A stretch of DNA of 64,000 nucleotides from Candidatus Amarolinea dominans (GTDB lineage Bacteria; Chloroflexota; Anaerolineae; SSC4; Amarolineaceae): positions 1-64,000 of the forward strand of contig JADJYJ010000010.1 in the NCBI GenBank assembly GCA_016719785.1, given 5' to 3'. The notes beneath the pieces are model-generated. The model was not told the DNA's origin. It searched no databases and was given only the letters and a program-made list of their open reading frames with translations. Both the position numbers and the translations under genes were made by a program. Within the stretch, counting starts at the first letter, position 1; every line of letters begins with the position of its first letter. This document shows positions 7,201 to 44,576 of this stretch, one piece after another.

Positions 7201-10200
7201 GGGCTGGCTGTTGATGGAGCCGGTCAGGGTCTTGCGGTTGGCGGAGAGGGTCAGCAGCAGCGGGAAGTTCTGCAGGCGGTTGGGGCCATCGTCCGCGTCA
7301 CCGCTGTCGTTGGCCGTCGCCCCGGCCGGCGCCAGGTCGAGGCCCAGGCTGTCGTTGGCGAAGATGCTGTTGACCGCGAAGGTGTTGGTCCGGCCAGAAT
7401 CGGCGAAGACGCCCGCCCCGGCGTTATGGGCGATGACATTGCCTTCGCCCGCTCCCGCGCCGCCGATGTCGTTCTCACTCGCGCCCAGGGTGAAGAAAAC
7501 GCCATGACCATCATTCCCCAGCGCGCTCGTTCCGTCCGCTGCGGCGCCGATGAAATTGCCTTGCACGGTATTTGTGGTTGCGCCCGGCCGCGTCAGTTGG
7601 ATGCCGTCCTCGCCGTTGCCGGAGATGACGTTGCCCGGCTGAGGGCCTGCGCCGCTGCGCGGCCCGCCGATGGTGTTGCCACTGGCGCTGTCAACGGCCA
7701 CGCCCGCACGGGTGTTGCCCAAACTGGCCGCGCCCACCGCGTCCGGGCCGATCAGGTTGCCCAGCACTTTGTTGCCACTGGCGGCCGTGCCATAGATGCC
7801 CACGCCGTTGCCGCTGTTGCCAGAGATGACATTGCCGGGCAGCGCGCCCGCCGGCGCCGCTGCTCCGCCGATGATGTTACCCGGCGCACCCTGCACGACG
7901 ACGCCATCACTCCCGTTGCTCAGAGCGACCGTGCCCGCCGCGTTCACGCCGATGGAATTGCCCAGCACCTTGTTGCCGCTGGCGCCCGCGCCTTCGATCT
8001 TCACACCCGCCTGGCCGTTGGCTGCAATCACGTTGCGCGGCGAGGCGATGCCGACCAACGTTTCGCCGCCGATGGTGTTGCCCGGCGCGCCTTGAAGATA
8101 GACGCCGTTCAGGCCGTTGCCCAGGGCCCGTGTGCCCGTCGCGTCCGTGCCAACCAGGTTGCCCCGCACGACATTGCCCATGGCATTGGGGCCGGCAATC
8201 GCAATGCCGTGCCCTTGCGCGCCGATCAGCCCGTTGCCGGAGATGGTGTTGCCCGGCGCCGACCCCATCACGGTCGTCTCCCGCCAATCGAATTGCGCGG
8301 CGCGTCGAAGATCTTCACGCCATTGGCCCCATTGCCCAGCACCCGCGCCCCGGTTCGATTCGGCCCGATGATGTTGCCCTGCACCCGGTTTTCCGCGGCG
8401 CCGCTCTGGATGGCGACGCCGTCGAGCATGTTGCCCGAAATGATGTTCTCGACGTCGAACCCCGTTCCGCCGATCTGATTGGTGTTCGTTCCCGCGTCCG
8501 TCAGCAGCACGCCGCTGAGCAGATTGGGCAGCGCGTTCTCACCGGCCAGGTCCGTGCCGATCAGGTTGCCCTGCACCGAGCTGTTGGCGGCGGCCAACGA
8601 GATGAGCACACCCACCCCGTGGCCTTCAGCGCCGTCGCCGTTGCCGGAGATCAGATTGCCCGCGAGCGCGGCCGGCGGGTTGTTCGACCCGCCGACGGTG
8701 TTGCCGGGCGCACCGGTGATCTCGACGCCGTGAAAGCCGTTGGGCAGCCGTCTGGCGCCGGTCGCGTCCGCGCCGATGATGTTCCCCAACAGCCTGTTGC
8801 GCGTGGCGCCGCCCGCCAGAATCACGCCGTCCTGCACGTTGCCGGAGATCAGATTGCCGGGCGCCGCGCCGCGGGTTGCCGTAGCCCCGCCAACCGTGTT
8901 GTCGTTCGCCGCGTTGATCTGCACCCCGCTGAGTCCGTTGCCCCTGGCCGTCGCGCCGGCCGCATCCGTGCCGATACGATTGCCGGCCACGGTATTTTGG
9001 GTGGCGCCGTTCTGCAGGCTGATGCCGTATTGGCCGTTCCCGGAAAGCACATTGCCTTCTCCGACGCCCGGCCCGCCGATGGTGTTCGTATTTGCCGCGT
9101 CCACGACCACGCCGCTCTGGCCGTTGCCCAATGCCGTCGTCCCGCTCGCGTCCATGCCAATCCTGTTGCCCTGCACCTTGTTGCGCGCTGCAGCCTCCGC
9201 CAGACGCACGCCGTCCTGACTGTTGGCCGCGATGATGTTGCCCTGGAACGCGGCCGACCCGCCGATGAGATTGAGATCGCTGCCCGCGCTGTAAACTGCC
9301 ACGCCGTGGCGTCCGTTGCCCAGTCGGGCGTTGGCGGTATTGACGCCGATGGCGTTGCCGTAAATGATGTTCTCTGCCGCGCCGTTCTGGATCGTCACGC
9401 CATCCAGCCCGTTGCCGACGATGATGTTGCCCCCATCAACCGCAACCCGCCCCACCTGGTTGGTGCGCGTGCCCGCGCCGTCCAAAATCACGCCGCTGAG
9501 CCGGTTGGGCCGCGCCAGCGTGGCGGTGGCGTCCGCGCCGATGACGTTGCCTTCGATTTTGTTCAGCGTCGAGCCGGCGCTGACGAACACGCCCACGCCG
9601 TTGCCCTGGCTGCCATCGCCGTTGCCCGCGATGACGTTGCCGGGCGCGCTGCCGGCGGGGTTGGCCGGCGCGCCGATGAAGTTGCTGGACGCGTTCTCGA
9701 GCGAGACGCCGTGCTGGCCGTTGCGCACCACCGTCGTGCCATCCGCGGCCAGGCCGATGAAGTTGCCGTAGATGCGGTTGCTGACCGCGCGATCGCTCAG
9801 CAGCACACCGCTGCGACCGTTGCCCGCAATCACGTTGCGCGACTCGCGATCCTCGCCGCCGACCAGGTTGGAGGCTGTGTCGGAACCAACCAGCGCGACG
9901 CCCGCGTTGCGGTTGCCCAGGTTGGCGCTCCCCGCGCTGTTCGTGCCAATCAGGTTGCCCTTGATTTCGACGCCGGTCGTGGTCCCGTGTAGAACAATGC
10001 CGACCCCACTGCCGGCCGCGGCGCTGCCGTTGGCCGCAATCACGTTGCCGGGCGGCGCCCGGCGTGGCGCTGCGCCCGCCGATGAAGTTGACGCCAGCGT
10101 CCGCCACCTCGATGCCGTGCAAATAGTTGCCCAGCGCTCCCCCGGCGCCGGTCAGGCCGATGAAGTTGCCCTGGACACGATTATCTCTGGCGCCGTTGCC

Positions 10201-11835
10201 GATCCACACGCCATCCAACTTGTTGCCGGAGATGACGTTGCCTTCGGCCGCGGTCGTCCCGCCGATCGTGTTTTCCCTGGCGCCGTTGATCTCGACCCCA
10301 TGGCCGGCGTTGCCCGGATCAGGGTGGGCGAACGGCACGGCGCCGATCAGGTTGCCGAGCACGTGATTGCCCGCCGATGTGCCCGAAATATGCACGCCGC
10401 TGCCGGCGTTGCCCGCGATCACGTTCTCCGCGCCGTCGGCCGTGCCGCCAACCTGGTTGTCGAAGCTATTCGCGATGGCGATGCCGGCGCTGCCGTTGCC
10501 CAGAAGCCCTGCGCCCCATTGCAGCCCAACTCTATTGCCCTGGATGCGGTTCCCGTTGGCGCCGGCATACAGATAGATGCCAACGTTCCCGTTGCCGGAG
10601 ACCACGTTGCCTTCCTCCTCCGTATCGCCGCCGATGTCGTTGCCGTTGGCGCCCTGGAACACGATGCCGTAGCTCGTGTTCGGCAGGGCGGCGAGGCCCG
10701 AGCTCGTCAAGCCGATCCCGTTGTTCTGAATAGAGACGCCCGCGGTCCCGTTGTAGAGCAAAACGCCATTGGTGTTGCCGGAGATCAGGTTTCCCTGTCC
10801 CTCCGCGGCCCCCCCTACGTAGTTCTCATTCGCGGCTTGAATGCTGACCCCCGCGCCAGGGCTGTTGCCTAGCGCCTGGTCGCCCGTCTTGTTCGTCCCC
10901 ACGTAGTTGCCATAGATCCGGTTGCCGGTCGTCGCGCCGTTGATGAACACGCCGGTATGGTTGGCGCTGATGACATTCCCCTCTACGCGGTTGTTGGGGG
11001 AGCCGCGAATCTCGATGCCCGAAAGCGCGTTGCCCTTCGCTTGCGTGCCGCTCAGACCAACGCCGATATAGTTGCCGGTAATGATGCTGCCGCCGCCGTC
11101 CAGAATGAAGATTCCAACCTGGAAGCGGTTGATCGCCAGCCCCTTCACCGTGGTGGAACCTGCCCGGATCTCAAGCCCATTGGCCTGGTAGGACGGGGTG
11201 CCGTCCAGCTCGATGACCGGGGCGCCGTTCCAGCCGGGCTGCGTGGTCGCGTCAATGGTCACCGGATCGGTGATGACCGGCAGCCCCGGCCCCTGCATGA
11301 AAATCGTGTGCGGCCCAGGCGGATCAATGGCAAAGGTGATGTCGTCGTGGCCGGGGTTGGCGTTGGCAAGATAAATGGCGGCGTAGAGCGAGTCTGGCCC
11401 GTCGGGGTTGGCGTTGCGCACGATGTAGCCCTGGGGCGCGGCAGATTGGGCGGCCGCTGGCTGCGTTGATTGAAGCGCCGAGAGCAGGCGCGCGGTCGCG
11501 GGAATGCCGCCAACGACCGTCGCGGCCCGAACGCCATCGGCCCAGGTTGAGGCGTAGGCGAGGGGCGCCGACGAGGAGACGACAACCGCGCCGGGCGCGG
11601 TCTTCTTCGACGCCGGCGCTGAAGCGCCGCGGACGACGAAGGTCGTCTGCAGGCCAGCGGGAGCCGGGATGGGTGCGGTTCGACGCGGCCCTTCCGCCGC
11701 AGACTGCGAACCTGCGGTGAATGTCAACATGAGGGAGATCGCCAGAGTAAAGGCAATGTGCCCGGCGCGGGCAGCCAGGCGCAGCAAGGTGTATCGCAGC
11801 GGCATGTATCTTATCATCGTGTTCATGATCACCAT
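4231..11835 (-). pseudogene. Giant (~2,500 aa) secreted parallel beta-helix (PbH1) repeat protein with Cna-B/CarboxypepD_reg-like domain, PT-rich linkers and a C-terminal CAP/SCP/PR-1 domain; split by about 4 frameshifts
   Basis: Five ORFs (9436-11835, 8268-10043, 6346-8271, 5814-6959, 4231-5757) continue one another across frame changes. The N-terminal signal peptide is followed by hundreds of GNxIGxxxxG.../NxIGG beta-helix turns. The CAP domain shows ...[13 protein letters not shown]... and ...YWAQDFG. TPT(A/R)TPT linkers separate the domains. Confidence 0.8.
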
Positions 11836-12820: not shown

Positions 12821-14307
12821 AGAATGTCCCACCCACGAGGGTACGCCTTGCGAAAGGACTTGTATTTTCTGGACGAGGCGGTGAGCGGGGCGAAATTGGA
12901 TCGTCCGGCGCTGGATCGGTTACGAGACCGAGAAGGTGAAGGCTGTTACCAGGTGGTGATCTGCCTGAGTCCAGATCGGTTGGCAAGGGTGTACATGTTG
13001 CAGGTGCTTCTGCTGGAAGAATTTCGGCAAGCCGGGATACAAATGTTGTTTGTGAACCAGCCTCCGGTGAGCGATAGCCCGCAGAGCCAACTGTTGTTCG
13101 GCATTCAAGGGTTGTTTGCCGAGTATGAACGGGCTGTGATTGCCGAACGGATGCGGCGAGGGCGTCTGCATTGCGCACGTCAGGGAGCAATGGTCAACCC
13201 AAAGACCCCATATGGGTATGATTACGTGCCCAAAACAGGGAGGGAAGGCGGGCGTTGGGAAATCAATGCCGAAGAAGCCAGGGTCGTGCGTCAAATTTAC
13301 GCCTGGTATACCCAATCCGAGCCGATGACTATTCAAGAAATCACAGATCGCTTGAATCGAGACGGCCTCCAACCGCGTCGCGGGAAGTGCTGGCGCAGTA
13401 GCCTGATTGAAACATCCTGCGACAAACCCAATATACCGGATTGGCTTACTACAATCGCACCGAAAAGGTGTATCATGAGGTGGGGCGATTGCGTAAAATT
13501 GGGCATGGCAAGCGTCTTTGCCCGGTGAGTATGCTTCGCCCCACAGAAGAATGGATTGCCATTCCCGTCCCCAGCATTTTGGACAAGGATATCTGGCGCA
13601 TGGCACAAGAACGACTGAAAACGAACCAGCGATTCTCAATGCGCAACAATCGCAACCACCGCTATCTCCTGCGCGGCTTGTTGATTTGCGCCACTTTTAG
13701 CCATACACTCACCGCCCCGCTGGGAATGGCTATTTTTCCTGGCTGTGGCTATGGCGGTGTTCACCGTGCCCCCGATACGCCTGAGCATACCTGCCGCATT
13801 GACGGCAACACCGTTGAAACCCTGGTTTGGAACGCAGTGGTGGAGCTTTTGAAAAATCCCAAACTGATTTCCCAAGCGTGGGGCTGCGATGAAGCTGCCA
13901 ACATCGAGCAAGGTGAGAAAGAGCGGTTGGAAAATCGCTTGCGATCGCTCGACCGTCAGCAAGAACGTCTGCTGGACTTGTACCAAGATGAGCAGATCGA
14001 AAAGCCATCCTACCTGGTGCGCAAACAACGTCTGGATGAGGAGCAAAAAAACATTCAAACGCGCCTTCTGCAAATCGAGCAAGAGGCCAAGTCCGAACAA
14101 ATCAAGCAGGAATTGATCGAAGATTTCCAGCAATATTGCCAGCGTATCCAGGAAAACCTTGCAAATCCCAGCCCGGATTTACAACAGGAAGTGATTCGGT
14201 TGTTAATTGATCACGTTGTTGTCGGAAAAAATGAAATCGTGATCAAGCACATCGTCCCGACCGATGATGATTGTCGTTTGAAACCACAACGTCTTTGCGT
14301 TGAATAA
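12732..14307 (+). pseudogene. Large serine recombinase (resolvase domain + recombinase domain + zinc ribbon/coiled coil), split by two frameshifts
   Basis: GGAGG then ATG at 12732 gives MKQTAALYARVSTQRQ, with the catalytic Ser in the resolvase N-terminus. The frame changes at about 12830, where a GGG homopolymer sits. It continues in ORF 12824-13528 (VFVNQPP..., DRLNRDG) and changes again near 13440 into ORF 13441-14307 (AYYNRTEKV, Cys-containing zinc-ribbon region and a long coiled coil). Confidence 0.8.
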
Positions 14308-32345: not shown

Positions 32346-33215
32346 ATGCCACATACATTGTACATTGTGGGCACGCCGCTGGGCAACGCGGCCGATTGGT
32401 CGCTGCGAGCGCAGCAGGTGCTGGCGGCAACGCCGGTCATTGCGGCCGAGGACACGCGCGTCACCGCGCGGCTGCTGGCCCACTGCGGCATCAGCGGGCC
32501 GCGGCTGCTCACCTACACCGACGCCTTTGCGCCCAAGAAGGCGCAGCGCCAGGCCGAAGTGCTGGCGGCCCTGCAGGCAGGCGATGTCGCGCTGGTGTCG
32601 GACGCCGGGATGCCGGGCATTGCCGATCCCGGTTCCGAACTGGTGCAGGCGGCCATCGCGGCCGGGCATCGGATCGTGCCGGTGCCCGGTCCCTCGGCGG
32701 TGGTAACTGCCCTGGCGGCGTCGGGTTTACCCGGCGAACGTTTCCTCTTCCTGGGCTTCCTGCCCCGTCAGCGCGCTGAGCGGCAGCAACTGCTGCGTCA
32801 GGCCGCGGATGAGCCGGGCGCGCTGGTCTGCTTCGAGGCGCCGCATCGCCTGCTGGACTGCCTGCAAGACCTGGTTGCGGTGTTGGGCGACCGCCGCGTG
32901 ACCCTGGCGCGTGAATTGACCAAGGAGCATGAGGAGATCTGGCACGGTCGCTTGGGCGAGGCGCTGGCACGGTCGCAAACCCAGGCCCCGCGTGGGGAAT
33001 ATGTGATCGTCATCGAAGGCGCGCCGCCCGCGCCGGCCGCGGAGAGCGGCGCCTGGCCGGTTGGTCAGGTGCGCGAGGCGCTCGCCATCCTGGCGCAGGA
33101 AGGGATTGACACCCAGATGGCGCCGCGGCTGGTCGCGCGGCTGGCCGGCTGGCGCAAAAAGGACGTCTACCGCCTGCTGGTGGCAGACAGGGATGCCGCT
33201 GACCCCGAGGGGTGA
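32346..33215 (+). CDS. rsmI: 16S rRNA (cytidine1402-2'-O)-methyltransferase
   Basis: MPHTLYIVGTPLGNAADWSLRA, with AAEDTRVT, VSDAGMPGIADPG and FLGFLP motifs of the RsmI tetrapyrrole-methylase fold. Confidence 0.85.
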   Translation: MPHTLYIVGTPLGNAADWSLRAQQVLAATPVIAAEDTRVTARLLAHCGISGPRLLTYTDAFAPKKAQRQAEVLAALQAGDVALVSDAGMPGIADPGSELVQAAIAAGHRIVPVPGPSAVVTALAASGLPGERFLFLGFLPRQRAERQQLLRQAADEPGALVCFEAPHRLLDCLQDLVAVLGDRRVTLARELTKEHEEIWHGRLGEALARSQTQAPRGEYVIVIEGAPPAPAAESGAWPVGQVREALAILAQEGIDTQMAPRLVARLAGWRKKDVYRLLVADRDAADPEG

Positions 33216-33300: not shown

Positions 33301-33711
33301 TTACACGACGCAGTAGCCGCACACTGTCTCCCCAGTGAAAGCGAGGCGGCGGCTGGCAAGGGGCGGTTGGAGTAGACGCGACGACGCGATGGCTCCTGCC
33401 GCTCCCTTGTGTTCCTCGCCCCGGTTGCCGACGTAGCTACGCATCCACTCCTGCGCCGACCCCGTCAGGTTGAAGCCCACCGTGCCGCCTGCCACGTCGT
33501 CCAGCACCTGCCCGGTGAAGCGGCGCTGCGTCGGCGTCGTACCGAAGGTGTAGCGGCTCTCGCCCCACGGCTTGTAGCGAATCTCCGACAGCCGGCCGCC
33601 GGTCTCGCTGGCTGTCAGCGCCGTGCTGCCGAGATGATCGGTCGCCAGCCAGCGCACCACCCCGTTGACCCGCAGCGCAATGCGCTGACCCCCGGCCTGG
33701 TAATACATCTT
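33301..33711 (-). pseudogene. Orphan RHS core-end fragment with a short divergent C-terminal tail
   Basis: MYYQAGGQRIALRVNGVVRWLATDHLGSTALTASETGGRLSEIRYKPWGESRYTFGTTPTQRRFTGQ is the conserved RHS C-terminal core. It has no upstream repeats. Confidence 0.55.
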
Positions 33712-33748
33712 CACCTCATCACCTGCCTTGCGAGCAAGACAAACAATC

Positions 33749-34137
33749 CTAATCCTCGAACTGCTCGCGCTGCAGACAATCCTTGTAGACGGCATGCCAG
33801 ACGTATGGCTCAAAGCTGCCGAGATCATCGTCCACGACGAATACGCCATTGACAGGCCTACTCTTGACAATCACGATGTCGGCTTGGTCATACTTATGAC
33901 GGCCGAAGAAGAAAAGATCCGTGATTGTTTCAAGCTTGCCGCCTACGAGATTGGGGCATGGCTGATGGTACCAGGCCTTTCGCTCAGACTCCGGATCGCA
34001 TCGTCGCGCAGCGTCCCCACGGGCACCTGTTTTCTCGCCTCCTCCAACGGCGATGTATAGCATCCAGCTACCAGTGTGACCAACAAGATCACGACACTCA
34101 CTGCTCCCAGTCTGCCGGCAACACTGATATGTTGCAT
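33749..34137 (-). pseudogene. Small lipoprotein directly downstream of RHS-1 (candidate immunity protein), frameshifted
   Basis: ORF 33943-34194 gives signal peptide plus lipobox VILLVTLVAGC. It continues in ORF 33749-34063 in another frame. Confidence 0.4.
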
Positions 34138-34160
34138 AACAAGCCTCCTGGCAGCGTCCA

Positions 34161-36687
34161 TCAGAACCAACGATCCAGCATGAAAAAGTTCCATGCGTGT
34201 GTGATGTCCGTCAACCCCAGGACACGGAATCGAACACCGAGCGCAGCCCCGCGATTTCCGATGCTGACATCTGACCAGCTATTGCGCCAATCGCCATGAA
34301 ATTGCGTGATTTCGCGCCCCGTGTTGAGCAAACTGCCGCCCGGGCCGTACTCCGCCCCCATGGTCAGCGCCCAAGCCCAATGATGCACATTCGCATCGTC
34401 ATCTGAGGTGCCCATGAACGAGGCAGGCAACCCCTGCCGATCAAAATAAACCCAGGTCCGTATGGGATTCCCTGCATTGCTGACCGCCGGCCAAGCGTTT
34501 GGCGCTTCCAAGCGATTGGCTAGACCTCCGAACAGGCTACCAATGTCTCTGGTGAACATACCCTCTTCGCCAGCTTTGTACCAACCGGTCAAGCGTTCCA
34601 GCGCGCTTGGCATGTCATTCCATGACCAGTTAGCAGGTCGGTTGTCTCGGAATACGCTCTCCAGGTTTCCCTGGACGTAGTTACCGTCAGCGTCGTAGAA
34701 GACTGACCAATTCCACTCGCCAGGAAAGGCTATCGAGAACAGACGAATCAAAATGTCTTCGGCCGTCGGCGCACGATGATGCATCTGCTCAAATTCGTCT
34801 TGCCACGCCTGATCCAACGGGTCGTGGCCTGATGGATCGATAAAGCGTAGAGGATTATTCCGGCAGTAAGAGTAGCGATTGAGATTTTGCGGATCGCCAG
34901 GATTGGGTATAATGCTGTCGGGTTGGATCCACCGGTTAAGATAAGGGTCGTAGTATCTGGCGTTGTAGAAATACAACCCAATGCTCGCATCCTCGCGTTG
35001 ACCCGTGAACCGGTAGGTCGTCGGCGTCGCGCCGACGGGCGTCCCTCGATTCTCACCCCACGGCTTGTACCACAACTCCCCCGTGCGCTCACCGCTGGCG
35101 CCATTGGCCGTCACCGTCGTGCTACCCAGGTGATCGCGCAACAGCCAGTACAACACCCCCGCCACGCGCACGGCCACCCGCTGACCGTTGAAATAGTAGT
35201 ATTTCGTGTGCGTCGTCGCGCCGCCAACCACCTTCTTCTCGTACAGGTTGCCGATCGTGGTGACCGTCTCCCCGTTCATCACGCTCTTGACCCGGTTCCC
35301 ATCCGCGTCATACACGAAGCTCGCCGTTGCTGCCCCGCTGATGCTGACCAGGCGATTCTCGTCATCATACGTCAGGGTGTAGGTGTTCCCCCCGATCGTG
35401 CGCCGCCGCATGTTGCCGTTCTGATCGTAACAGTAACTGCTGCCGTTGCTTGTGCTCACCACCGCATGCTTCTTCACCAACGCACCTTCCGGGCAACTGC
35501 CCGCCTGCGCCACCCCGTAGCTGTACGTCCCCTGCCCCGTCTTGCTGATCAGGTTGCCCGCATTGTTGTAGCTGTAGCTCTCATCGTACACCCAGCTCCC
35601 GGTCCCATCGTCGTAGCCCGCGCAAATCGCATCACCCGTGAAGCCGCGCAACAACCGATCCAACCCGTCGTAGCTGAAGCACTGCCGCTGACCGCTATTG
35701 CGCGCATCCACGATCCAGCGCACATTGCCGGCCGTATCGTAGCCATACGTCAAGTCCTGCAAACTGCTGGCATCCGCCGACGTTCCTGCCTTCACCTTCT
35801 GCAGGCGCCCCAGTCCGCCGCTCGCTGTCCAGGGATGGTAGGTGAACGCCATCTGCACCACCGGATTGTTGTTGGTGCTCTGCTTGCCCAGCTTCAACTG
35901 CGTCAGCCTTCCGGCCTCATCATACACCGCATTCCCGCTGCGCACATAATCCACACTGCTGTACATCCGCCCCGGCAGCCCCTGCGCTGTGTACGCCACG
36001 TTGACCGTCTCCGCACTCTGGGTCGGGTAAACCACCCGCAGCACCCGGTCCGCCGAATCATAGGTGTAACCGAGGGTGTACGCCTCCCCATCAATCGTGT
36101 GCGTTTCCGCCGTCACCCGCCCGCGCTTGTCGTATGTCCAACTCGCGCTGTTGTTGACTTCGCCGCCCACATACGCCCTCATCCCGGTGCGCCGACCCTT
36201 GCCGAACTGCGTGGCCCCATCGAACGCATCATAGCTGTAATCGGCCAACACCATCCCGCTGCTGCTGCCGCTCTGCCATTTCTGCGTCAGCCGGTTCCAG
36301 TCCGTCATAGCCAAACCCTATCGTGACATTCCGCGCATCGGTCTGCGCCACCAGGTTCCCGGCCGTGTCGTACGTGTAACTCCACGCACCCATGTCCGGG
36401 TCGTTCATACTCGTCTTGCGCCCCAGCAGGTCGTACGTGATCGTCGTCACCGCCCCATCCGGCCCGGTCATCTGCAGCAGCCGGTCGGCGATGTCGTAAG
36501 CATAGGTCGTCACCCCGTTCGCATTCGCATTCCAGGCCGGCGTCGGACACGTGGCCGTGCCGCTGCCCAGTCGGTCGCCAGCCAGCGGGCGCGGGCGGGG
36601 CGGGGGGCTCGGGGCGCTTTGCGCTGATACCGTCGTCGCCAGAGTGGTAACAAGCATCAACTCTGCCGTGCAAAAAGGGGACATCAA
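34161..36687 (-). pseudogene. RHS/YD-repeat protein (about 840 aa) with signal peptide and about 240-aa C-terminal domain; one frameshift at about 36300
   Basis: ORF 36229-36687 carries the signal peptide and the first YD repeats, and ORF 34161-36314 carries the rest. The core ends ...YRFTGQREDASIGLYFYNARYYDPYLNRWIQPD...RFIDPSGHDP, followed by the C-terminal domain. Confidence 0.8.
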
Positions 36688-36765
36688 ACACCTCCTCTAC
36701 CCTAGATAACGCTACTTTATCACAGCGTTACTTTACCCAACTTTGGTAGTGGTGTCCAGTCCTCA

Positions 36766-37177
36766 TTTCACATCGTACGGTGTCAAATCGAGCAGATTCA
36801 GAGGAATCCACCCTTCAAGAGAACCTGAGGATTTGACAAAGGCCCAGAATTCTTGATCGGTATTTGACCAGGCAAAGTCCCAAATGGTAACTTCTTTGTA
36901 GCATGGCAGAACCCCCAACAGATTACCTCTGTCACCCATGTATGCACTGTTTGGATCTGAAGGCTTGACACCGGGCAGTTCCCAGATACTAATCCCGCCT
37001 GGATCTAATTTCGGATCCCCTGTACATCCAATACTCGCCTTTTTTGGCAGTACTTGTAGTTCGTGTGGTGTTGTTGGTGTTCTCTCGGGGAGGGGTCGGT
37101 TGAGGCGATATCAAGGCGCATCCGTTCAGCGTCAACATAAATAAACACATCGTTATGGTCAATATGGTATTCAGCAT
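36766..37177 (-). pseudogene. Small lipoprotein starting 4 nt after the giant RHS stop (candidate immunity protein), frameshifted
   Basis: MLNTILTITMCLFMLTLNGC lipobox in ORF 36989-37270. After a frame change near 37000 it continues ...GCTGDPKLDPGGISIWELPGVK...WIPLNLLDLTPYDVK* to 36766. Low-GC region. Confidence 0.45.
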
Positions 37178-37181
37178 GGCG

Positions 37182-40100
37182 CTACCTCGCCCACGGCTGA
37201 AAGTAGTACCATGGCACACGATGACCAGGCGAGTTGCTCGCCCAAAGCCCGGATCGCGCATCCACAGCATAAGTCACGGCCAAGCCAACCTCTGCCATGC
37301 TGATGATTCCATCATACAACATGGACCCGTGGCTTACCGCCACATACCCCAAGTTCAGATCGGGATTACTCAACTCGCTGAGAGGGCCATCTCGAAGCCA
37401 ATTGCTGGCGTAACCAGCAGCTGGCCCAAAGAAATACCCCAGGTAAAAAAGTCCTGCGTAATGATGGCTTGGATTGGGGTCATCAACCAATGATGCTCTC
37501 CAGTTGGCTGTGCCTTCGAAGAGAGGTTCATATTGGGCCCATGCAGCGCCAGGGTTGGTTGCCATCTGCCAGGCTGCAGGGATGGCATGGCCAAGCGGTA
37601 CACCTCCCCAAATAAAACCAATGGCTTGGGCGTATAATCCTTCCTCGCCGGGTGCATAATACGAGGCCAGTTGTTGAAGATGAGTAACAAAACGATCCAG
37701 TCCTGCAGATGGAGCGCCTTGCCATGATGTGCTACCTTCCCAGAGTCCTTCCCTATTGGCGTGATACCTTGTCCAATCCTCATCTGTCCACGAACCGTTA
37801 GCCCCACTGCCGGCAAACAAGATCGAAAAGAACCGATCTCGGCGATCTTGGTCAGTTGGCGCACGATCATGCGCGGCGTAGAAGGCTTGCTCCCACGCAG
37901 CATCTATGGGGTCAAATCCACTCGGATCCACAAAACGTAAAGGTCGGTTCCCGACATAGCTGTACCGATTCAAACTTTGCGGATCTTTGCGGCTGGGGAA
38001 TGATCGTATCCGCGGCGAGGAATCGCCCGATGACCGGGTCATACCATCGCGCCTGGTAGAACAGCAACCCTGATCCACTATCCCGCCGCTGCCCCGTGAA
38101 GTTGAACGTCGTCGGCGTCGTGCCCGCCGTGTAACGCGGCGCGCCGTAGGGGTAGTAGCGAATCTCGGTGTTGGTGTTCAACCGATTCCCCGCGCTGTCC
38201 AGCGTCAGCGCGGTGGAGCCGAGATGATCCGTCAGCAGATAGTAGAGTACACCGCCGCTGTTCTCCGCCACGCGTGCGGCGCCAGCGTAATAGTACTTCT
38301 TGACCGTCCCGTTGTCTACTTCGTAAGTGTTCCCTACGAAGACCCGGGTCGCGCCGCTGATGGTCTCCTTGACCCGGTTGCCGTCGCCGTCGTACACGTA
38401 ACTCGCCGTCACGCCCCCGGACATCGCAGTCAGCCGATTCTCCGCGTCGTAGGTCAACGTGATGTCCTGGCTGCCGCTGATGCGCCGGGTGGCGTTGCCA
38501 TTCTGGTCGTACCAGTATTTCTGATAGCCTGCCGTCGTGCCCCCGACATGGGTCACAGCATGCTTGTGTGCGCCATTCTGATAGTAGAGGTTCGTGCCTG
38601 TGCTCTCGAAATTGGTGATGTTGCCCGCATTGCTGTAGGCGTAATTGCGCTGGCTGTAAGCTCCGTAGTTTCCATTGTTGGCAACGCAGGTCCCCCCGCT
38701 CAGCGTGCATGCCGTTTGCAGACGATCCAGTCTGTCATACGTGAAGCGCAGCGCCTGGCTCCCGCCGTACGCCGCCGCATCCGTAATCGTCAGCACGTTG
38801 CCCGCATCATCGTACGTGTAGCTGATGTTCTGCCGGTTATCGTAGTTCGGACTCGTGCCTGCCTTCAGGCTCAGCAGGCGGAAGTTCTCGGCCGCACTGT
38901 AGGCGTACAGTTGTTTCACCACCCCGGTCGTGCTGCCCAGCCAGCGTTCCATCACCTGCCCGCGTTCGTTGTACTGCGTCTTGCCGACATAGTAGGTGCT
39001 GCCGTTGCTGCGCACTGTGTTCAGCAACCCCTGCGTCGTGTACGCATAGTGTACCTGCTCGCCAATCTGACTCGCACTGCCGCCGGGGTATTTCATCCAC
39101 AGCGGCCGATCCGCCGAGTCGTATCCCCACTGTGTCACGAAGGTTCCGCCGCCCGTTCCGTTGATGGCCTTGCTCTCCTGCGTTACCCGTCCGCGGCCGT
39201 CGTAGGTCCAACTCGCGCTGCCGGAGCTGTCGCTCATCCCGGTGCGTCTCCCCTTGCCGGTTGTGCCGCTGTCATACGTGTAACCCACCGCCGTCGCACT
39301 GCATCCACTCGACCCGCTGTAGGTCTTGCCCTTCACCCGGTTGAGGCCATCGTAGCTGAAGGTGATGACGCAACCCCGCGCATCGGTCTGCGTCTGCAGA
39401 TTGCCCGCCGTATCGTAGGTGTAGCTCCACGCACCCATGTCCGGGTCGCTCATGCTGGTCTTGCGGCCGGCCAGGTCGTACCCGATCGTCGTCACCGCCC
39501 CGTCCGGCCCCGTCATCTGCTTCAGCCGGTCGGCCACATCGTAGCTGTAGCTGGCCTGCCCGTAGACCGTCGCTCCCCAGTTCGGCGCAGCCCCCGGCGC
39601 CAGCGTCAGATCATACTGCTTGACACTCGCCAACCGCCCAAAGGCATCGCTCTCCGAGATCGTCTGGTGGTTCAGCTCGTCCAGCATCGCCGTCTGTCGA
39701 TTCTGGTAGTAGGTGCGCACGGTGCTGCCGTCCGCCTGCGTGACCTGCGTCACCCGCCCCAACCGATCGGACGTTGACTGCGTCGCGGCCAGCCCACTCC
39801 AGTTCACCGCCTGGTACGTCACTCCGCTCACCGTACTCGTGTACGGCGCCGAGGCCGCCGCCAGGTTGCCCAGCCCATCGTAGCGCTGGCTCACCAGGCT
39901 CCACTGGCTGCTGCTGTACTCCTTCTGCACCTGCCGCACGCGCCCCAACCCATCGTAGAACGTGCGCTCCTCCAGGTAGGTCGCACTCGCGCTGGCGTCG
40001 CCATTCCCATCATCGCGCAGCAAATGCCGCTGCACATACAACCCCTGGTCCGTCGTGTAGACAATCTTCTCCGTCGCCGGGTTGCTGAACCCCGCCCCCG

Positions 40101-43100
40101 GCTTACGCACCTCCGTCAGCCGGCCAAACGTATCGTACGTATAGAGCGTGACCGCCTCGTTGGCGTCGGTCTCGCTCTGTATTTGTCCCACCAACCCGCT
40201 GCCCCCGCCGTCGCATTCATGCCGTAGCGCGATGGTCGTCGTCAGCGTCGCGCCGCCCAACTGACAGGCCTGCACCGTTACGCTCATCGCATAGGCATGA
40301 AACGTGCTGTCGAAGGCCGTCGTGACCACGCTGCCATTGGCCGCCGTCTCGCTCCAACGGTTGCCCCATTGGTCATAGCCGTAAGCCGTCGACCGCATCC
40401 AGTTCGCGTCACACCCCGTGCCGCCCTGTCCCGCCTGCCACACCTCTCTCACCTGCCCAGCCGTCGGCGCCTGGTTGTACGCCGCATAGCCGCTGTAGTT
40501 GTCGTAGATGGTGCGCGTCTGCCCCTGGCATGTCCCGCTTTCGCTCCCCGCGAACAGCTTCTCCTCCGCCACCCGATTGACGATGTAGGTCGTGCCGTCA
40601 TTGCGTGGGGAATAGACCCGCTTGATCGTTCGGTATGGTATCGTTGGCGCGGCCTCGCTGTATAGCCGGGTCAACAGCAGATTGCCATACGCCGCATCGT
40701 AGGTGTTGACGCTTTTGGTGTAACGCAGCGGCGGGTCCGTGCCGTTGGGGTCCACAACGTATTCGGTCTTGTCTTGCAGATAGACGAAGTGCATCCCGCC
40801 CGGCGTCCCCACGCTGGTCTCGTTCCAGGTCTGCAGCGAACGCGCCAGCAAGTTGTTGGTGACGCCCAAACCCGCACGCGTCTCTGTCTTGGACAGCTTG
40901 CCTTTCCAGCGGTGCTGATTGGTCGTGGTGTGGAACCACTGCTTCAGCCGCGTGTCCGGCTGACCGCTGCCGATCAAGGCGCCGCTCCCTACCAGCGTCA
41001 TTTCCGCTTCGGCAAAGCCCCCCGCCTCGTTGTCCCAGGTCGTCGTGTACCAGTAGCTCGTCACGATGTCCGGATCGCTCCCGCCCCCACGCCGCCGCTC
41101 CTGCTGCACCACCATTCCGCCGCTCGAACCGCCGTACGTAACCTCCACCCGTCCCTGGTAGCCGTTGTTCACCGTCACCATGTGCCCATCCGTCGTGCCG
41201 CTCCCGTAGGTGTAGCTGGTTGGCGGCAGCGCATTGCTGCCGGTCCCATAGTGCGTGATCGTACTCAAGTACAGCCGGCTCTGCGACGGCGCCGCCGGGT
41301 TGATGAACGCCGTCATGCCCAACACCAGTTTGTGCAGCAGCGTATTGTTGGCCATCACCTCCACCCGCTGCAGGTACTTTCGTGTCCAGAAAACCTGGTA
41401 GCCGGTCTCGTCGAAGTGCTGAGCCCGGTCCTCCCGGTTCAGATAGAATAGCTTCAGCTTGAAGGCGCCGTTTGGCCCATAGCTGATCTCCTTCACCCGC
41501 ACCGCACGCACCTGGATGCGCGCATCGGCCGTGTAGTCGCGGTTCCAACAGTCTGCCGGCACATTCACCGCCAACAACGAACCCTCATAGTCATAGCTGA
41601 ACGTCAGACGATTAGGCGTCGTTGGCGTGGTGTCGCGCACCTCGGTCAACACCCACTTGGTGAAGCGATGCACCACCCGCAGTTCCGAAGGCGTCCAGTC
41701 TCCATTGCTGCAATCGCGCACATACAGCGCCGGCTCGAAGTGATAGGTAATGCCGCCCTCGGTCGTCACCTCCCACACCAGGTTGTCCCGGTTGTACAGC
41801 GCCGGCGTCTGGGGCAGATCAATCGTCTTGAAGGGCGTCGGCGTACTGGGGTCAAAACTTCCATCGACTGGATAGTCAGGGTTGGAAGCGGTGGGCCGGC
41901 GAATCTTCAGGAAGGGGTCCTGCACGCTGTAGAAAATCTCGCCGTGTTTCTCCAATTCATGGGTCACGCCGTTCAGGGTCAGGTGTACTTTCCCATGCCG
42001 TCTGGAGTCAAATCGTGCAGGATGTAGCTCAACCCACCGATGTCCCAGCCCCACCCGGCCAGTTGATGATGACCGGCGCCGGCCAGGCTGCGGCTGCTAT
42101 AGTCCAGGCTTAGCCCAGGCGCCAGTCCGCCCGGCCCCGGCGGCGCTGCGATCGGGTAGCTCACGGTCCAGGCCCCGTTGTACAACTGCGACTGCACCCC
42201 TTCGATCCCCGGCGCAGGCTCTGGCACAATGGCGTTGCCTTGCGCAAACAGCGTCAAATGGGTCAGGGTGGTGATCAGCCGCCTTTGCTCCTGATCCATG
42301 CTCGTTGGCAAGACCACCCAACGCCCGTCGGCCGCATCCTGGAAGAACAGCGAAGCGCCCGGTGGCCAGGGCGTTTGCTCATCGCCAGCCGCCGGATCGC
42401 GATAGCGCAGCGTCAACCCCACCGCAAACTGTGTCACCGGCAGTCCCGACATCTCCGTGGCGCTCAACTCGAACAGGAAATCAAGGTTCGCCGGCTGATC
42501 GGGATCGCTCTCGTGCGGGTGTAGCGCACCAGGGTCGGTGCGCTGACCGTACCAGCCGGAATCGTGAGCACCACCCGCCCATCGCTGCTCTGCAACCGGC
42601 TCTCCTGATCAGGCATCACCCACACCTCATCCGGCCCCGGCCCCGGCGTCCAGGTGGCGTCGGCGTCGGCGTACACCCCTCATCATCCTGGCAGGGGTGA
42701 CGGTGCAGCCGTCGGCGTTGGCGTCGCCGTCGGCGTCCAGGTGGCGGTCGGCGTTGGCGTCACTCCTCATCCTCGGTGGCGTGGCCGTCGGCGTCGGTGT
42801 ACACTCCTCATCCTGGCAGGGCGGCGGCTCGGCCGTCGGCGTGGCGGTCGGCGGTTCGGCCGTGGGCGTCGGCGCGCAGTCCTCGCCCAGGCAGGGCGCC
42901 GCGGTGATCGTGATCGCAGCGCTGGCCGTCACCCCTGCGCCCACCTCCTCGCTCACGATGGCCGCGGTGTTGGTGATGACCTGCCCGCTGACCGCACCCA
43001 GCGCCTGCGCCTGGAACGTGCCGGTCAGCGTCGCGCCCGCGGCCAGTTGGCCGATGACCCACTCCAGCCGGCGCTCGGCCTCCAGGTAGCTGAAATCCCC

Positions 43101-43322
43101 CTCCCCGGCCGGCCAATAGGCCAGCTCCAGCGGCAGGGTATCGCTCACCACCAGCCCGCTCAGGGCGCGGTCGGCCAGGGTGTTGGTGATGACCACGGTG
43201 TAGGTGACCACCCCGGCCGGCTCGACCTGCCGCGGTGCCGCGGCCAGCGTCAACTGCACCGGCGCAGGCGCGGGCGTCGCACCAGGATCGGAAATGAGAT
43301 CGAAATTGGGATCAGGGGACAT
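37182..43322 (-). pseudogene. Giant (about 2,040 aa) RHS/YD-repeat polymorphic-toxin-like protein: DUF11/CARDB-like domain, PT linker, SpvB-like N-terminal region, YD repeats, RHS core, about 270-aa C-terminal domain; about 4 frameshifts
   Basis: Pieces 42627-43322 (DUF11, TPTPTATP), 42464-42676, 41979-42467 (GWGWDIGGLSYI) and 37912-42054 (dozens of YD repeats; YYYAGAARV...LTDHLGSTAL...FTGQRRDSGSGLLFYQARWYDPVIGRF). These are followed by 37182-38078 (PxxxxDPSGFDP then the C-terminal domain). The shift at about 42005 occurs in a gggaaag run. Confidence 0.85.
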
Positions 43323-43345
43323 GGGTTTAGTAGCGGTATTTATCT

Positions 43346-43357
43346 GGGGGGGGGGGG
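43346..43357. repeat. Homopolymeric G12 tract (C12 on the RHS coding strand) about 25 bp upstream of the giant RHS start
   Basis: tatctggggggggggggtagcagc. Confidence 0.85.
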
Positions 43358-43726
43358 GTAGCAGCAGCCGCCGTGGAAAAGAGCAGGCTGAATACTACCA
43401 ACAGATGAACCAACGACGACAGGCGCGGCGCGAGCCGGCCGCGAGCAGAATGTCGAGAAGAGAGGAGAGAGAAAGTAGAACACCAGCGTAACATGACAAC
43501 GGACTCCTTTCGTGCAGCAATCGAAACGGCTGGGGTCAGGGACATTTTCCTGACTGCTGTAAGGAGGTCGCGGGCGGGAGAGAGAACTCTCGCCGGGGAC
43601 TTCCGACGGCGGGAGACGACTCGGAAGGCGGGGGGCATGCTTGTGGCTGGTCACAGCATACCACGCGCGCGGCGATCTGTCAAGAGGCAAATTCGGGTGA
43701 CGACAGGGAGTCACGAAGGAACCAAG

Positions 43727-43952
43727 GAATACTCCTTTGTGTCTTGGCGTCCCTGTGTGACCAAGAAAGAAATCTCACACAAAGACACGAAGAACACAAA
43801 GGAATCAGAGAATACTCCTTTGTGTCTTGGCGTCCCTGTGTGAGCAAATCCCGTTAACGCAAAAGACGCCAGAGGCGCAGGAGACGCAAGGGTTACTTGA
43901 AAACCCTTTGCGTCCCGGCGTCTTGGCGTCCCGGCACCCCGGCGTTGAAAAA
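43727..43952. repeat. Cluster of short GC-rich repeats (core TTGGCGYCCC): a 34-bp direct repeat x2 plus a 70-bp element related to 59547-59594
   Basis: gaatactcctttgtgtcttggcgtccctgtgtga occurs at 43727 and 43811. gagacgcaagggttacttgaaaaccctttgcgtcccggcgtcttggcgtcccggcaccccggcgttgaaaaa compares with gagacgcaagggctttttcttggcgccccggcgccccggcgttaaaat at 59547. Confidence 0.75.
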
Positions 43953-43961
43953 ATGGAACTA

Positions 43962-44576
43962 TCAGGCCATTGCGGCTGCGAAGCGCTTGCTGACCTCGTC
44001 CCAGTTGACGGTGTTCCACCACGCGGCCAGGTAGTCGGGCCGGCGGTTCTGATACTTCAGGTAGTAGGCATGTTCCCACACGTCAATGCCCAGGATCGGG
44101 GTGTGCCCGTCCATCAGGGGGCTGTCCTGGTTGGCTGTGCTATAGGCGGCGAGCTTGTGCTTGCCGTCCACCACTAGCCATGACCAGCCGCTGCCAAAAC
44201 GGGTAACGCCGTTCTGCGTGACCTTGGTCTTGAAATCGGCAAAGCTGTTGAACGTGCCGGCAATGGCCTCGGCCAGCGCGCCGGTCGGTTCCCCGCGGCC
44301 GCCGGGAGCCATGATCTCCCAAAATAGCTTGTGATTGTGATGCCCGCCGCCGTTGTTGCGCACAGCCGTGCGGATGCTCTCCGGCACGCCGGCGATCTCA
44401 GCCAGCAGGGCCTCCAGCGGTTTCTCGGCCAGTTCGGGCGCATTGGCCAGCGCGTTGTTCAGGTTGGTGACATAGGCCTGATGATGCTTGTCGTGGTGAA
44501 TCTGCATCGTCAGTTCATCAATGAATGGTTCCAGTGCGTTGTATGCATAGGGTAAAGGTGGAAGCGTATGAGCCAT
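43962..44576 (-). CDS. sodA: Fe/Mn superoxide dismutase
   Basis: [10 protein letters not shown], a GGGHHNH-containing helix, and [18 protein letters not shown], which is the metal-ligand Asp/His signature. Confidence 0.9.

Follow-up and report, generated by a model that had tools for sequence, protein, structure and literature searches.

The minus strand between positions 33301 and 43700 of the window, which is the whole stretch of 64 kb analysed, carries an RHS (YD-repeat) polymorphic-toxin island flanked by two housekeeping genes, rsmI and sodA. The island is an ordinary bacterial toxin-and-antidote locus with the standard RHS layout. Its two C-terminal domains, CT1 and CT2, constitute one undescribed protein family without a known fold, and their neighbours Imm1 and Imm2 are mutually unrelated exported lipoproteins, putatively SH3-like in one case and putatively BamE/BLIP-like in the other. 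Four features typical of Rhs/YD-repeat polymorphic toxins were found, namely YD repeats, a core with a terminal DPxG motif, a C-terminal domain that varies and has an adjacent immunity gene, and orphan cassettes. A first-pass annotation of this DNA had described five elements on the minus strand in an rhs-CT/immunity/orphan arrangement. These elements are present near the positions given there, with matches to DUF11 (1e-10), RHS_repeat, YD_repeat_2x and Rhs_assc_core, and the arrangement was read correctly; no T6SS or T7SS trafficking domain was detected. The low-GC patch it mentioned is also real, since GC content drops to 0.52-0.55 over the CT and immunity genes compared to 0.62-0.70. None of the elements is contained in an intact ORF, and at least 11 frame breaks are present in 10 kb. 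Taken together with the readings of cassettes, toxins and frameshifts given below, the island is probably a Sec-exported RHS locus of a Candidatus Amarolinea-like filamentous bacterium of the Chloroflexota from wastewater.

The main RHS would be one gene of about 2,100 codons, specifying a signal peptide, a DUF11 domain, a Pro/Thr linker, the YD shell, a core ending in DPSGF, and CT1. A promoter-like site (TTGACA-17 nt-TATGCT with an upstream TG, 43655 to 43683, minus strand as all features below) matches the consensus at 10 of 12 positions, and the island has no other strong site; it was called by consensus match alone, and shuffled sequence yields at least as many sites in total. Between this site and an ATG at 43494, an AGGAG ribosome-binding site is located. 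The ATG opens the signal-peptide ORF (43359 to 43494; MLRWCSTFSLLSSRHSARGRLAPRLSSLVHLLVVFSLLFSTAAAAT...), which continues in frame into the DUF11 domain in contig L023. In the window, it is out of frame with the DUF11 ORF owing to a run of 13 C residues. The start of the main gene had been placed at 43322; the true start is further upstream, the signal-peptide ORF behind the C13 run having been missed. Next follow a DUF11 (CARDB-like) surface domain (42790 to 43322; Pfam DUF11 1.2e-10, NCBIfam B_ant_repeat) and a Pro/Thr-rich linker (42500 to 42789), which had to be read in three frames. The linker consists of three PCQDEEC-TPTPT units falling in different frames, so that at least four single-base shifts must be present. 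A beta-rich region (41990 to 42499) with a frame break at about 41990 contains the weak SpvB-like motif GWGWDIGGLSYI. While the DUF11/CARDB-like domain and the linker of the earlier description were confirmed, the SpvB match reached only 17.5-19.5 bits, below the Pfam threshold of 22, and covers profile positions 4-46 only; a family member, P0037, scores 28.7 bits.

The YD-repeat shell extends from 38158 to 41989 (RHS_repeat 1.4e-32, YD_repeat_2x 1.5e-21, and tblastn with full-length homologues). It is followed by the RHS-associated core (37914 to 38157), which ends with PLRFVDPSGF and is interrupted by a single additional base at about 37989. Positions 1-52 and 49-75 of TIGR03696 (Rhs_assc_core) match two separate ORFs, and the split is also seen in alignments to contigs L002, L010 and L011. 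The start of the toxin domains is marked by PLRFVDPSGF directly before CT1 and by PLRFIDPSGH directly before CT2. The giant RHS protein of about 2,040 amino acids predicted earlier is therefore not continuous in the window: the main RHS is distributed over at least four listed ORFs in three frames (43322-42627, 42467-41979, 42054-37912 and 38078-37182), with at least eight frame breaks. L023 and L024 carry intact alleles, and an intact allele exists for each site that was compared.

Further frame breaks affect Imm1 (at about 37081), RHS2 (at about 36297) and Imm2 (33981). Short-read contigs with 88-99% identity, derived from other samples, are in frame at 41990, 37989, 37081 and 33981 as well as at the C run; these five of the at least 11 sites could be compared with such near-identical contigs. 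At about 41990, for example, the window reads TACACC and L024 TACCACC. The window itself matches a metagenome-assembled genome (MAG) with the locus tag IPM84. Since the five testable sites are in frame elsewhere and the window is part of a MAG, the frame breaks most likely reflect consensus errors made when long reads from a population were assembled, not gene decay. Assembly error, and not a biological cause, is thus also the best explanation of the frame-shifted pieces that the first-pass annotation had proposed to merge. A truly decaying, non-functional locus, in which selection was lost and genuine frameshift mutations then accumulated, is quite improbable. It would account for the clustering of at least 11 breaks within 10 kb next to intact housekeeping genes of 1.4-2.4 kb, a density about ten times that of the flanking genes, and for the broken state of other long accessory genes of the window, a giant beta-helix gene and a gene for a serine recombinase. 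Moreover, the stub at 33301 to 33711 and a junction remnant at about 36560 to 36700 are truly degenerate. On the other hand, all breaks examined are single-base length changes, not accompanied by stop codons or larger deletions, and at these positions near-identical alleles from at least five short-read assemblies, independent of each other, are unbroken. Two breaks coincide with sites at which the population is polymorphic (one an A/G SNP, the other a 6-nt indel), as in a muddled consensus, and one is an A4-to-A3 homopolymer change. In addition, dN/dS values determined against L002 are about 0.2 (CT1, 0.20; Imm1, 0.18). That long genes elsewhere in the window are interrupted too is likewise in line with a functional locus and assembly error.

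The C13 run (43346 to 43358, poly-Pro codons) is located at the boundary of signal peptide and mature protein and is the sole C/G homopolymer of at least 10 nt in the 64 kb. Runs of 9, 12 or 15 C residues would be in frame, 13 are not. No two of the three assemblies agree on its length: the window has C13, L023 C9 and L024 C11. Such a unique tract near the 5' end of the coding sequence for a surface toxin could indicate phase variation by slippage, with C9, C12 and C15 as ON and C11 and C13 as OFF states, and an adjacent 21-nt repeat in the signal-peptide region varies in copy number as well. However, Nanopore consensus sequences and Illumina contigs of low coverage (1.6-2.5x) fail at long homopolymers, and the three lengths may therefore all be errors. 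The C11 of L024 does not keep the signal-peptide ORF in frame, but another frame is open through the run. Phase variation, which would be compatible with the reading of the locus as a whole, appears unlikely.

The second RHS element, RHS2, comprises shell and core (34824 to 36569, frame break at about 36297) and CT2. It had been taken for a shorter RHS that has a signal peptide of its own. RHS2 as an independent secreted protein was rejected, since L024 contains the same sequence as the 3' end of a full-length RHS gene. The apparent signal peptide was rejected as well; it is decayed orphan-junction sequence read out of frame. This remnant (KYYxAGGQRIA...RWLATD, 36560 to 36700) was identified by aligning its DNA to the starts of the orphans in the window, L010 and L013. 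RHS2 and the main RHS are collinear, about 3.05 kb apart. RHS2 shows two RHS_repeat matches in Pfam (2.4e-14 and 7.8e-12) and shares 93.7% identity with the 3' portion of the intact RHS gene in L024. Judged by these alignments, RHS2 is a 5'-truncated cassette that was once the 3' end of the main rhs gene and has been displaced. The last element is an orphan stub (33301 to 33711) with the core start KMYYQAGGQRIALRVNG...RRFTGQ, which is 94% identical to the 5' end of an orphan in L016. Here, the earlier annotation of an orphan core fragment with a different tail holds for the core start and for the unrelated sequence behind it, but not for a CT: the core stops short after RRFTGQ, and within 33301 to 33711 neither a DPxG motif nor a toxin domain is present.

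Comparisons with other contigs revealed a mosaic of cassettes. The CT1-Imm1 pair of the main gene is in orphan position in L001 and L002, and the same cassettes occupy main or orphan positions in different genomes. In L011, the similarity between strains stops precisely at PLRFVDPSG, and in L024 it stops where the core ends. The downstream part consists of a displaced shell, core and CT2, its own Imm2, and then a dead core stub. It may represent a silent reservoir, from which homologous recombination in shell and core DNA would swap a cassette into the expressed gene. Enterobacterial Rhs/RhsI loci of E. coli, Salmonella and Dickeya reportedly contain orphan rhs-CT/rhsI cassettes. The island resembles them in the YD shell, the core ending in DPxG, the variable C-terminal toxin and the immunity gene directly downstream, as well as in 5'-truncated orphans sharing core and shell DNA exchanged by homologous recombination. 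It differs in the host, a member of the Chloroflexota, in the toxin family, which is undescribed, and in immunity proteins that are exported lipoproteins instead of cytosolic proteins. Unlike enterobacterial Rhs, it also has no PAAR, VgrG or T6SS context and possesses a Sec signal peptide together with a DUF11 domain.

A T6SS-delivered Rhs effector should be indicated by a PAAR/VgrG-binding N-terminus and by T6SS or chaperone genes. Pfam searches with all N-terminal pieces of the main RHS yielded only DUF11 and weak SpvB matches, and beside the island no T6SS or chaperone genes were found, the neighbours being housekeeping genes. Likewise, an LXG or WXG100 domain, expected at the N-terminus of a T7SS toxin, gave no Pfam match; a Sec-type signal peptide is found there instead. 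WapA/WapI of Bacillus subtilis is a Sec-dependent, wall-associated YD-repeat toxin system for contact-dependent inhibition. As in WapA/WapI, a signal peptide, a surface-retention module, a YD shell, a polymorphic toxin and an adjacent immunity gene are combined, and no specialised secretion system is needed. WapA has cell-wall-binding repeats, which are replaced in the island by DUF11 and the Pro/Thr linker, and WapA toxins are tRNases with cytosolic immunity proteins, while the island has lipoproteins. In proteins of the TcdB/TcaC class, whose hosts include Chloroflexi, a signal peptide is followed by SpvB and a beta-propeller before the RHS repeats (Zhang et al. 2012, PMC3482391). The main RHS shares with this class (compare the TcB-TcC cocoon of Tc toxins) the signal peptide, present in the ORF from 43494 and in the in-frame fusion in L023; the motif before its YD shell is SpvB-like, with a match below threshold. 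A propeller domain gave no match in the Pfam profile search, and no TcA-like gene was found among the ORFs of at least 200 amino acids in the 64-kb window.

CT1 is a predicted toxin domain of 243 residues (37182 to 37913, stop included), and CT2 is a paralogue of 220 residues (34161 to 34823, stop included). The domains had been treated as two separate unknowns, but they are members of one family, with 32% identity (BLASTP, E 1e-19), and CT2 retains all family-invariant residues in two alignments. The family includes 23 close homologues and, at E<=1e-3, 292 cluster representatives, in which the domain is always C-terminal. An RHS core precedes it in 168 of 169 members. Among the ten longest members, nine could be classified by Pfam, all of them as RHS proteins. 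As noted in the first-pass annotation, the domains match no recognised toxin: searches of CT1 and CT2 against Pfam (including Tox- and Ntox- families), NCBIfam and PHROGs gave no significant match, and the predicted model has no relative by fold in the PDB. The AlphaFold model is confident (pLDDT 92.3, pTM 0.91) and all-alpha. Near-invariant residues are W7, Y86, H150, H151, R174, D185 and G189, and the putative active site likely consists of His150-His151, Arg174, Asp185, Tyr86 and Glu90. Motif and fold comparisons favour no particular chemistry.

The gene for Imm1 (36766 to 37177, frame break at about 37081) starts 4 nt past the CT1 stop. It specifies a lipoprotein with the lipobox LNGC and a putatively SH3-like C-terminal domain, the latter based on a weak SH3_3 match of the L004 homologue only (E 0.051). 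P0170, with 135 residues and 99% identity, is an intact version of Imm1. Imm2 (33749 to 34137, one A missing at 33981) starts 23 nt past the CT2 stop and has the lipobox VAGC and a conserved pair of cysteines. Its predicted model resembles BLIP, OsmE and BamE, as well as BtiO, a T6SS immunity protein of Bacteroides fragilis; its assignment to the BamE/OsmE/BLIP-like lipoproteins, which combine a fold of two helices and four strands with a lipobox, is tentative. The linkage to RHS genes suggested before was confirmed in homologous loci. Imm1-type proteins are encoded downstream of CT homologues in L001, L002, L004, L005, L006 and L010-L014, Imm2 follows CT2 at the identical 23-nt spacing in eight contigs, and in total CT-immunity synteny at 4 or 23 nt is kept in more than 15 loci. 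Pairing is not one-to-one, because a close CT homologue in L003 (68% identical) is followed by a different small membrane protein; other partners are also found in L008 and L009. Homologues of Imm1 and Imm2 are lipoproteins or possess signal anchors, and the partners in other cassettes of related RHS genes are likewise lipoproteins or membrane proteins.

The location of the immunity proteins is the single argument for the site of action: because Imm1 and Imm2 are exported and lipid-anchored, the toxin should act outside the cytoplasmic membrane. Zhang et al. (2012, PMC3482391) point out that secreted or transmembrane immunity proteins accompany those toxins for which action at the cell surface is predicted. 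Action in the cytoplasm of the target, for instance on nucleic acids or nucleotides, with the lipoproteins as passengers or in docking or export, is very unlikely, even though the RHS toxins characterised so far are mostly nucleases, deaminases or ADP-ribosyltransferases acting in the cytoplasm (Zhang et al. 2012, PMC3482391), His-His pairs are often found in nucleases, and CT pairing is loose. The small gene is found at its fixed spacing past the CT stop across species and moves with the CT cassette, no ORF for a cytosolic immunity candidate is located between CT and lipoprotein genes, and every type of partner is exported or membrane-anchored. A membrane-inserting or pore-forming toxin, whose insertion is stopped by the lipoproteins, is improbable as well. 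All segments of CT1 and CT2 are below transmembrane hydrophobicity (maximal 19-residue Kyte-Doolittle means of 1.29 and 0.98; GRAVY -0.3 to -0.4), conservation is strongest at the polar His-His, Arg, Asp and Tyr residues, as is typical of a catalytic site, and no similarity to pore domains of the colicin type was found.

The CT domain is most likely an enzyme that attacks neighbouring cells at their envelope or at the outer face of their cytoplasmic membrane, and in kin cells the lipoprotein would block it there. The more specific reading is tentative and may well not hold: a new-fold enzyme with a His-His/Arg/Asp/Tyr centre would kill by attacking the envelope from outside, at peptidoglycan, a lipid-linked precursor or a membrane lipid; one toxin fold would have elicited two lipoprotein inhibitors of unrelated structure, and expression might be switched by poly-C slippage. 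If attack on the envelope is true, a Sec-secreted RHS protein would need no membrane-crossing machinery in filamentous Chloroflexota, which are devoid of an outer membrane. In Streptococcus intermedius, the LXG toxin TelC degrades lipid II from outside, and its immunity protein TipC is membrane-bound. TelC is delivered by a T7SS and the island's toxin by Sec and RHS, and no sequence or fold similarity was detected. The analogy is functional only and comprises the absence of a classical outer membrane, action at the outer face, and surface-anchored immunity.

RHS-type sequence occupies the minus strand between rsmI (32346-33215, plus strand) and sodA (43962-44576, minus strand), and the island is flanked by housekeeping genes. 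Profile searches of this strand detected a DUF11 domain (ORF 43322-42627), an SpvB match below threshold (ORF 42467-41979), strong RHS/YD repeats (ORFs 42054-37912, 36687-36229, and 36314-34161), and the RHS-associated core. GC content is 0.52-0.55 across the toxin and immunity segments versus 0.62-0.70 elsewhere. By these profiles and the GC dip, the five elements listed in the first-pass annotation are present: a main RHS gene, a first lipoprotein gene (Imm1), a second, shorter RHS (RHS2), a second lipoprotein gene (Imm2), and an orphan stub. Its core reading of the island stood, while four details had to be corrected. Scans for tRNA genes and Rfam families in the 64-kb window gave no hits.

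A promoter-like sequence, TTGACA-17-TATGCT, was found by sequence match at 43683-43655 (minus strand), and an AGGAG ribosome-binding site is also located upstream of the ORF for the signal peptide. This ORF starts with MLRWCSTF...LLVVFSLLFSTAAAAT, a Sec-type signal peptide, and precedes DUF11. Behind a poly-C run specifying poly-Pro lies DUF11, then a linker in which the unit PCQDEEC-TPTPT occurs three times. The next region is beta-rich and homologous to the N-terminal end of the RHS in a Caldilinea contig (L001); it is followed by the motif GWGWDIGGLSYI, the YD shell, the core, and the toxin domain CT1. The core ends with PLRFVDPSGF, and CT1 comprises the 243 residues that follow. No PAAR, VgrG, LXG, or WXG domains were detected in the main gene by profile search. 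The SpvB region remained under the Pfam threshold even when joined across its frameshift.

None of the five elements has a continuous reading frame. For the main gene, reading-frame comparison placed breaks on the minus strand at the C13 run (43346-43358), at four or more sites in the Pro/Thr linker (around 42790-42500), and near 41990; a further one near 37989 lies inside the core, where the TIGR03696 profile is divided over two ORFs. Breaks on the same strand are also found in Imm1 (near 37081), RHS2 (near 36297), and Imm2 (33981). They could indicate real recent decay of the locus or errors in the consensus. Five break sites can be compared with independent short-read contigs of other samples, which keep the frame at every one. 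At 37989, the window reads CCGCAAAGATCCG, and two related contigs read CCGCAAGATCCG (L010) and CCGCAAAATCCG (L011); the extra base coincides with an A/G polymorphism and, from the sequences, looks like two alleles fused in one consensus. At 37081, the window has one base more than the short allele of a 6-nt indel polymorphism seen in the others (ETQIPTTP versus ETPTTP). At 33981, A3 in the window corresponds to A4 in five contigs with 95-98% identity, and at 41990, TACACC corresponds to TACCACC in L024, a short-read relative, with otherwise near-identical flanks. The C13 run is C9 in another short-read relative, L023, so that the signal peptide and DUF11 share one frame. In L024, the RHS ORF runs for about 2,240 codons without interruption. 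Against the copy in Ca. Amarolinea aalborgensis (L002, 90.5% nucleotide identity), the two frameshifts of the window are the only internal indels over 1.35 kb, and the dN/dS values are 0.20 (CT1) and 0.18 (Imm1). Consensus errors concentrated in strain-variable DNA are therefore the most likely cause of the breaks, and real recent decay is improbable.

A database protein named 'MAG: hypothetical protein IPM84_12980 [Anaerolineae bacterium]' has exactly the sequence of the 104-residue ORF at 33749-34063, which shows that the window belongs to a metagenome-assembled genome. We attribute IP-prefixed locus tags to the activated-sludge MAGs that Singleton et al. (2021) assembled from Nanopore reads. 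In that study, CANU assembly was followed by Racon, medaka, and one round of Illumina polishing, and the authors caution that each of their MAGs is a chimeric bin of a population and that platform errors affect the sequences (Singleton et al. 2021; PMC8012365). The island provides a worked example of long-read MAG consensus errors accumulating in strain-variable loci and imitating pseudogenes. Frame breaks were also observed in the Caldilinea sp. assembly GCA_026003635.1: the 1988-residue main RHS (L001 926-6892) loses its frame shortly ahead of the core, and an orphan (L001 8382-9426) is split at '...SPDS|IVPEPGN'. RHS loci in MAGs seem to be generally prone to such breaks.

The C13 run is the only run of at least ten C/G residues in the 64-kb window and separates the signal peptide from the mature RHS. 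Its length varies across three assemblies (C13 in the window, C9 and in frame in L023, C11 in L024). It may be an ON/OFF phase-variation tract, but homopolymer error explains the lengths equally well. Two further repeats were observed nearby. A perfect 31-nt direct repeat, CACAGGGACGCCAAGACACAAAGGAGTATTC, is located just upstream of the promoter-like site (43727-43757 and 43810-43840, minus strand, 83 nt apart). A 21-nt unit of seven codons, TCTTCTACTTTCTCTTTTCTA, in the n-region of the signal peptide differs in copy number between the window (about 43440-43490), L023 (about 4700-4760), and L024 (about 6600-6700).

RHS2 had been regarded as a separate short RHS with its own signal peptide. It is collinear with the final 1.6 kb or so of the shell of the main gene; identity is 75-82%, and the offset stays at about 3.05 kb throughout. 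In the intact RHS of L024, the 5' 4.2 kb are 88% identical to the main gene of the window (43480-39333), and the ORF then runs on with 93.7% identity to RHS2 (36569-34872). Its C-terminus (reverse strand, about 8340-9355) is another toxin, whose HExxH motif (HTVVHELAHIIDWH) resembles that of metallopeptidases, followed by another lipoprotein (MSKFVAILLLSVILAGC...). Since the L024 ORF joins the 5' part of the window gene to the RHS2 sequence, the main gene of the window has taken up a recombined cassette at about 39.3-39.6 kb. The incoming cassette comprised a new 3' part of the shell, the core, CT1, and Imm1, and shifted the old 3' end, RHS2 with its toxin domain CT2 and Imm2, downstream. By comparison with L024, RHS2 is the displaced 3' end of the main gene, a worked example of such an end turning into an orphan cassette. 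The supposed signal peptide resulted from a wrong frame; its DNA can be aligned to the usual start of orphans (KYYQAGGQRIALR...RWLATD), which comes after Imm1 in L010 and L013 and also opens the orphan stub of the window (33711-33301). This stub does carry the RHS core start, as annotated, but stops after RRFTGQ without a toxin.

The cassettes are also found in different contexts. CT1-Imm1 is attached to the main gene in the window and is an orphan in Caldilinea (L001) and Ca. A. aalborgensis (L002); in six or more contigs, CT2-Imm2 is an orphan with two tyrosine recombinases beside it. PLRFVDPSG is the exact point at which L011 becomes similar to the window. At the level of alignments, these placements and the L011 breakpoint directly indicate cassette mobility. 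In L015-L020, the two tyrosine recombinase genes are convergent, specify 527 and 295 residues, and are located about 180 nt downstream of Imm2; they may take part in cassette mobility.

The two toxin domains, CT1 and CT2, are homologues (32% identity, E 1e-19). A word-indexed search revealed 23 close relatives, the top one a Caldilinea protein with 82% identity, and an exhaustive profile search yielded 292 cluster representatives (clusters defined at 50% identity), 173 of them at E<=1e-10. The domain is C-terminal in all. Pfam classifies nine of the ten longest members as RHS proteins; P0126, the remaining one, lacks any Pfam match and is also the lone exception among 169 retrieved members, the other 168 having an RHS core in front of the CT domain. 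All eight loci from a motif-restricted genome scan belong to Chloroflexota (Amarolinea, Caldilineaceae, Promineifilaceae, and Anaerolineales). Among 170 sequences, W7, Y86, H150, H151, R174, D185, and G189 are near-invariant, and E90 is conserved in 81%; CT2 retains every near-invariant residue.

The family has no match in Pfam, NCBIfam, or PHROGs. An AlphaFold2 model of the domain is all-alpha with 12 helices and confident (pLDDT 92.3, pTM 0.91), and neither a sequence profile search of the PDB (best E 0.9) nor Foldseek (best E 0.75) gave a convincing relative of solved structure. These searches bear out the earlier remark that the CT domains lack a recognised toxin fold. A sizeable, undescribed toxin family is thereby defined, without known fold and absent from Pfam, NCBIfam, and PDB; with the confident model and the short list of candidate catalytic residues, it is directly testable. 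Hydropathy shows the domain to be hydrophilic overall without a transmembrane-grade segment; therefore, an enzyme is favoured, and a pore-former was ranked low. Lysines are scarce in both domains (none in CT1, 37185-37913, and one in CT2, 34164-34823, beside 12-16 Arg and 25-28 Asp plus Glu), which may be an effect of high GC content.

P0126 carries a LysM-like N-terminal head, which is also present in L009, an Anaerolineales MAG. In L009 (8969-18755), three paralogues share a near-identical LysM-like head of 200-340 residues and differ in their C-termini; only one has the CT family, and downstream of the first lies a small membrane protein. The arrangement looks like a LysM-headed polymorphic-toxin set. 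The head was rejected as a clue to a peptidoglycan target; because two paralogues combine it with other C-termini, it is a carrier module that says nothing about the substrate.

With the extra base removed, Imm1 is a 137-residue lipoprotein with the lipobox LNGC; an intact form of 135 residues (P0170) is 99% identical. Proteins with an Imm1-type C-terminal domain come after CT homologues in L001, L002, L004, L005, L006, and L010-L014, in L005 as a tandem pair on a signal anchor. Profile evidence for family membership is limited to one weak SH3_3 match. Imm2, with the missing base at 33981 restored, is a 129-residue lipoprotein with the lipobox VAGC and two more invariant cysteines, and its 23-nt spacing from CT2 is the same in eight contigs. 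Homology between Imm1 and Imm2 was tested and rejected; the alignment is confined to the signal peptides, and the families are otherwise unrelated. Pairing is not strict: a CT with 68% identity in L003 has a different, membrane-anchored partner of 145 residues, and a third partner type is common to L008 and L009. Every CT partner is either exported or anchored in the membrane, and this also holds for the partners found with other cassettes of related RHS genes. Where a toxin is predicted to act at the cell surface, its immunity protein is secreted or transmembrane, and a lipoprotein, found just once, is exceptional among polymorphic-toxin immunity proteins (Zhang et al. 2012; PMC3482391). From the location of the partners and this pattern, we infer a site of action for the toxin outside the cytoplasmic membrane.

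At the sequence level, the island has every feature of Rhs toxin-immunity loci that include orphans and does not qualify as encoding T6SS- or T7SS-delivered toxins. The layout of the main gene matches the Sec-dependent 'TcdB/TcaC' class, with the SpvB match of the window below threshold; this class is listed for Chloroflexi (Zhang et al. 2012; PMC3482391). In its way of working, the locus is closest to Bacillus WapA/WapI and the Sec/SpvB class of the same authors. RHS islands of this layout are textbook, and the locus itself adds little; the novelty is the toxin family and the lipoprotein immunity proteins, not the system.

A mechanism can be proposed along these lines. The RHS protein would be exported by Sec and retained at the surface via DUF11 and the linker, with CT1 enclosed in the YD shell. 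The aspartyl protease of the core would cleave after DPSGF, as is established for RHS proteins. Contact with a neighbouring filament would free the toxin onto the target envelope, where a putative His-His/Arg/Asp/Tyr centre could hydrolyse or modify an envelope component. Kin cells would be protected by the lipoprotein binding the toxin on the outer side of the membrane. The downstream CT2-Imm2 cassette, if expressed, would keep Imm2 available and could recombine into the expressed gene; a weak promoter-like site is present at 36758-36730. The poly-C run might add ON/OFF switching. Exported lipoprotein immunity with two unrelated folds points to envelope-directed killing in Chloroflexota, which would include bulking filaments of wastewater plants. 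To our knowledge, cell-cell antagonism in this phylum has not been studied.

Broken frames were also observed outside the island, in other long accessory genes. A giant right-handed beta-helix/NosD-like surface protein (5814-11835, minus strand) is represented by four overlapping ORFs in differing frames, and the tail of ORF 9436-11835 is Arg-rich and out of frame; this gene is probably another casualty of assembly indels. A large serine recombinase (12824-14307, plus strand), lacking its N-terminal catalytic part, is spread over two frames (12824-13528 and 13441-14307) and is either a mobile-element remnant or an assembly error.
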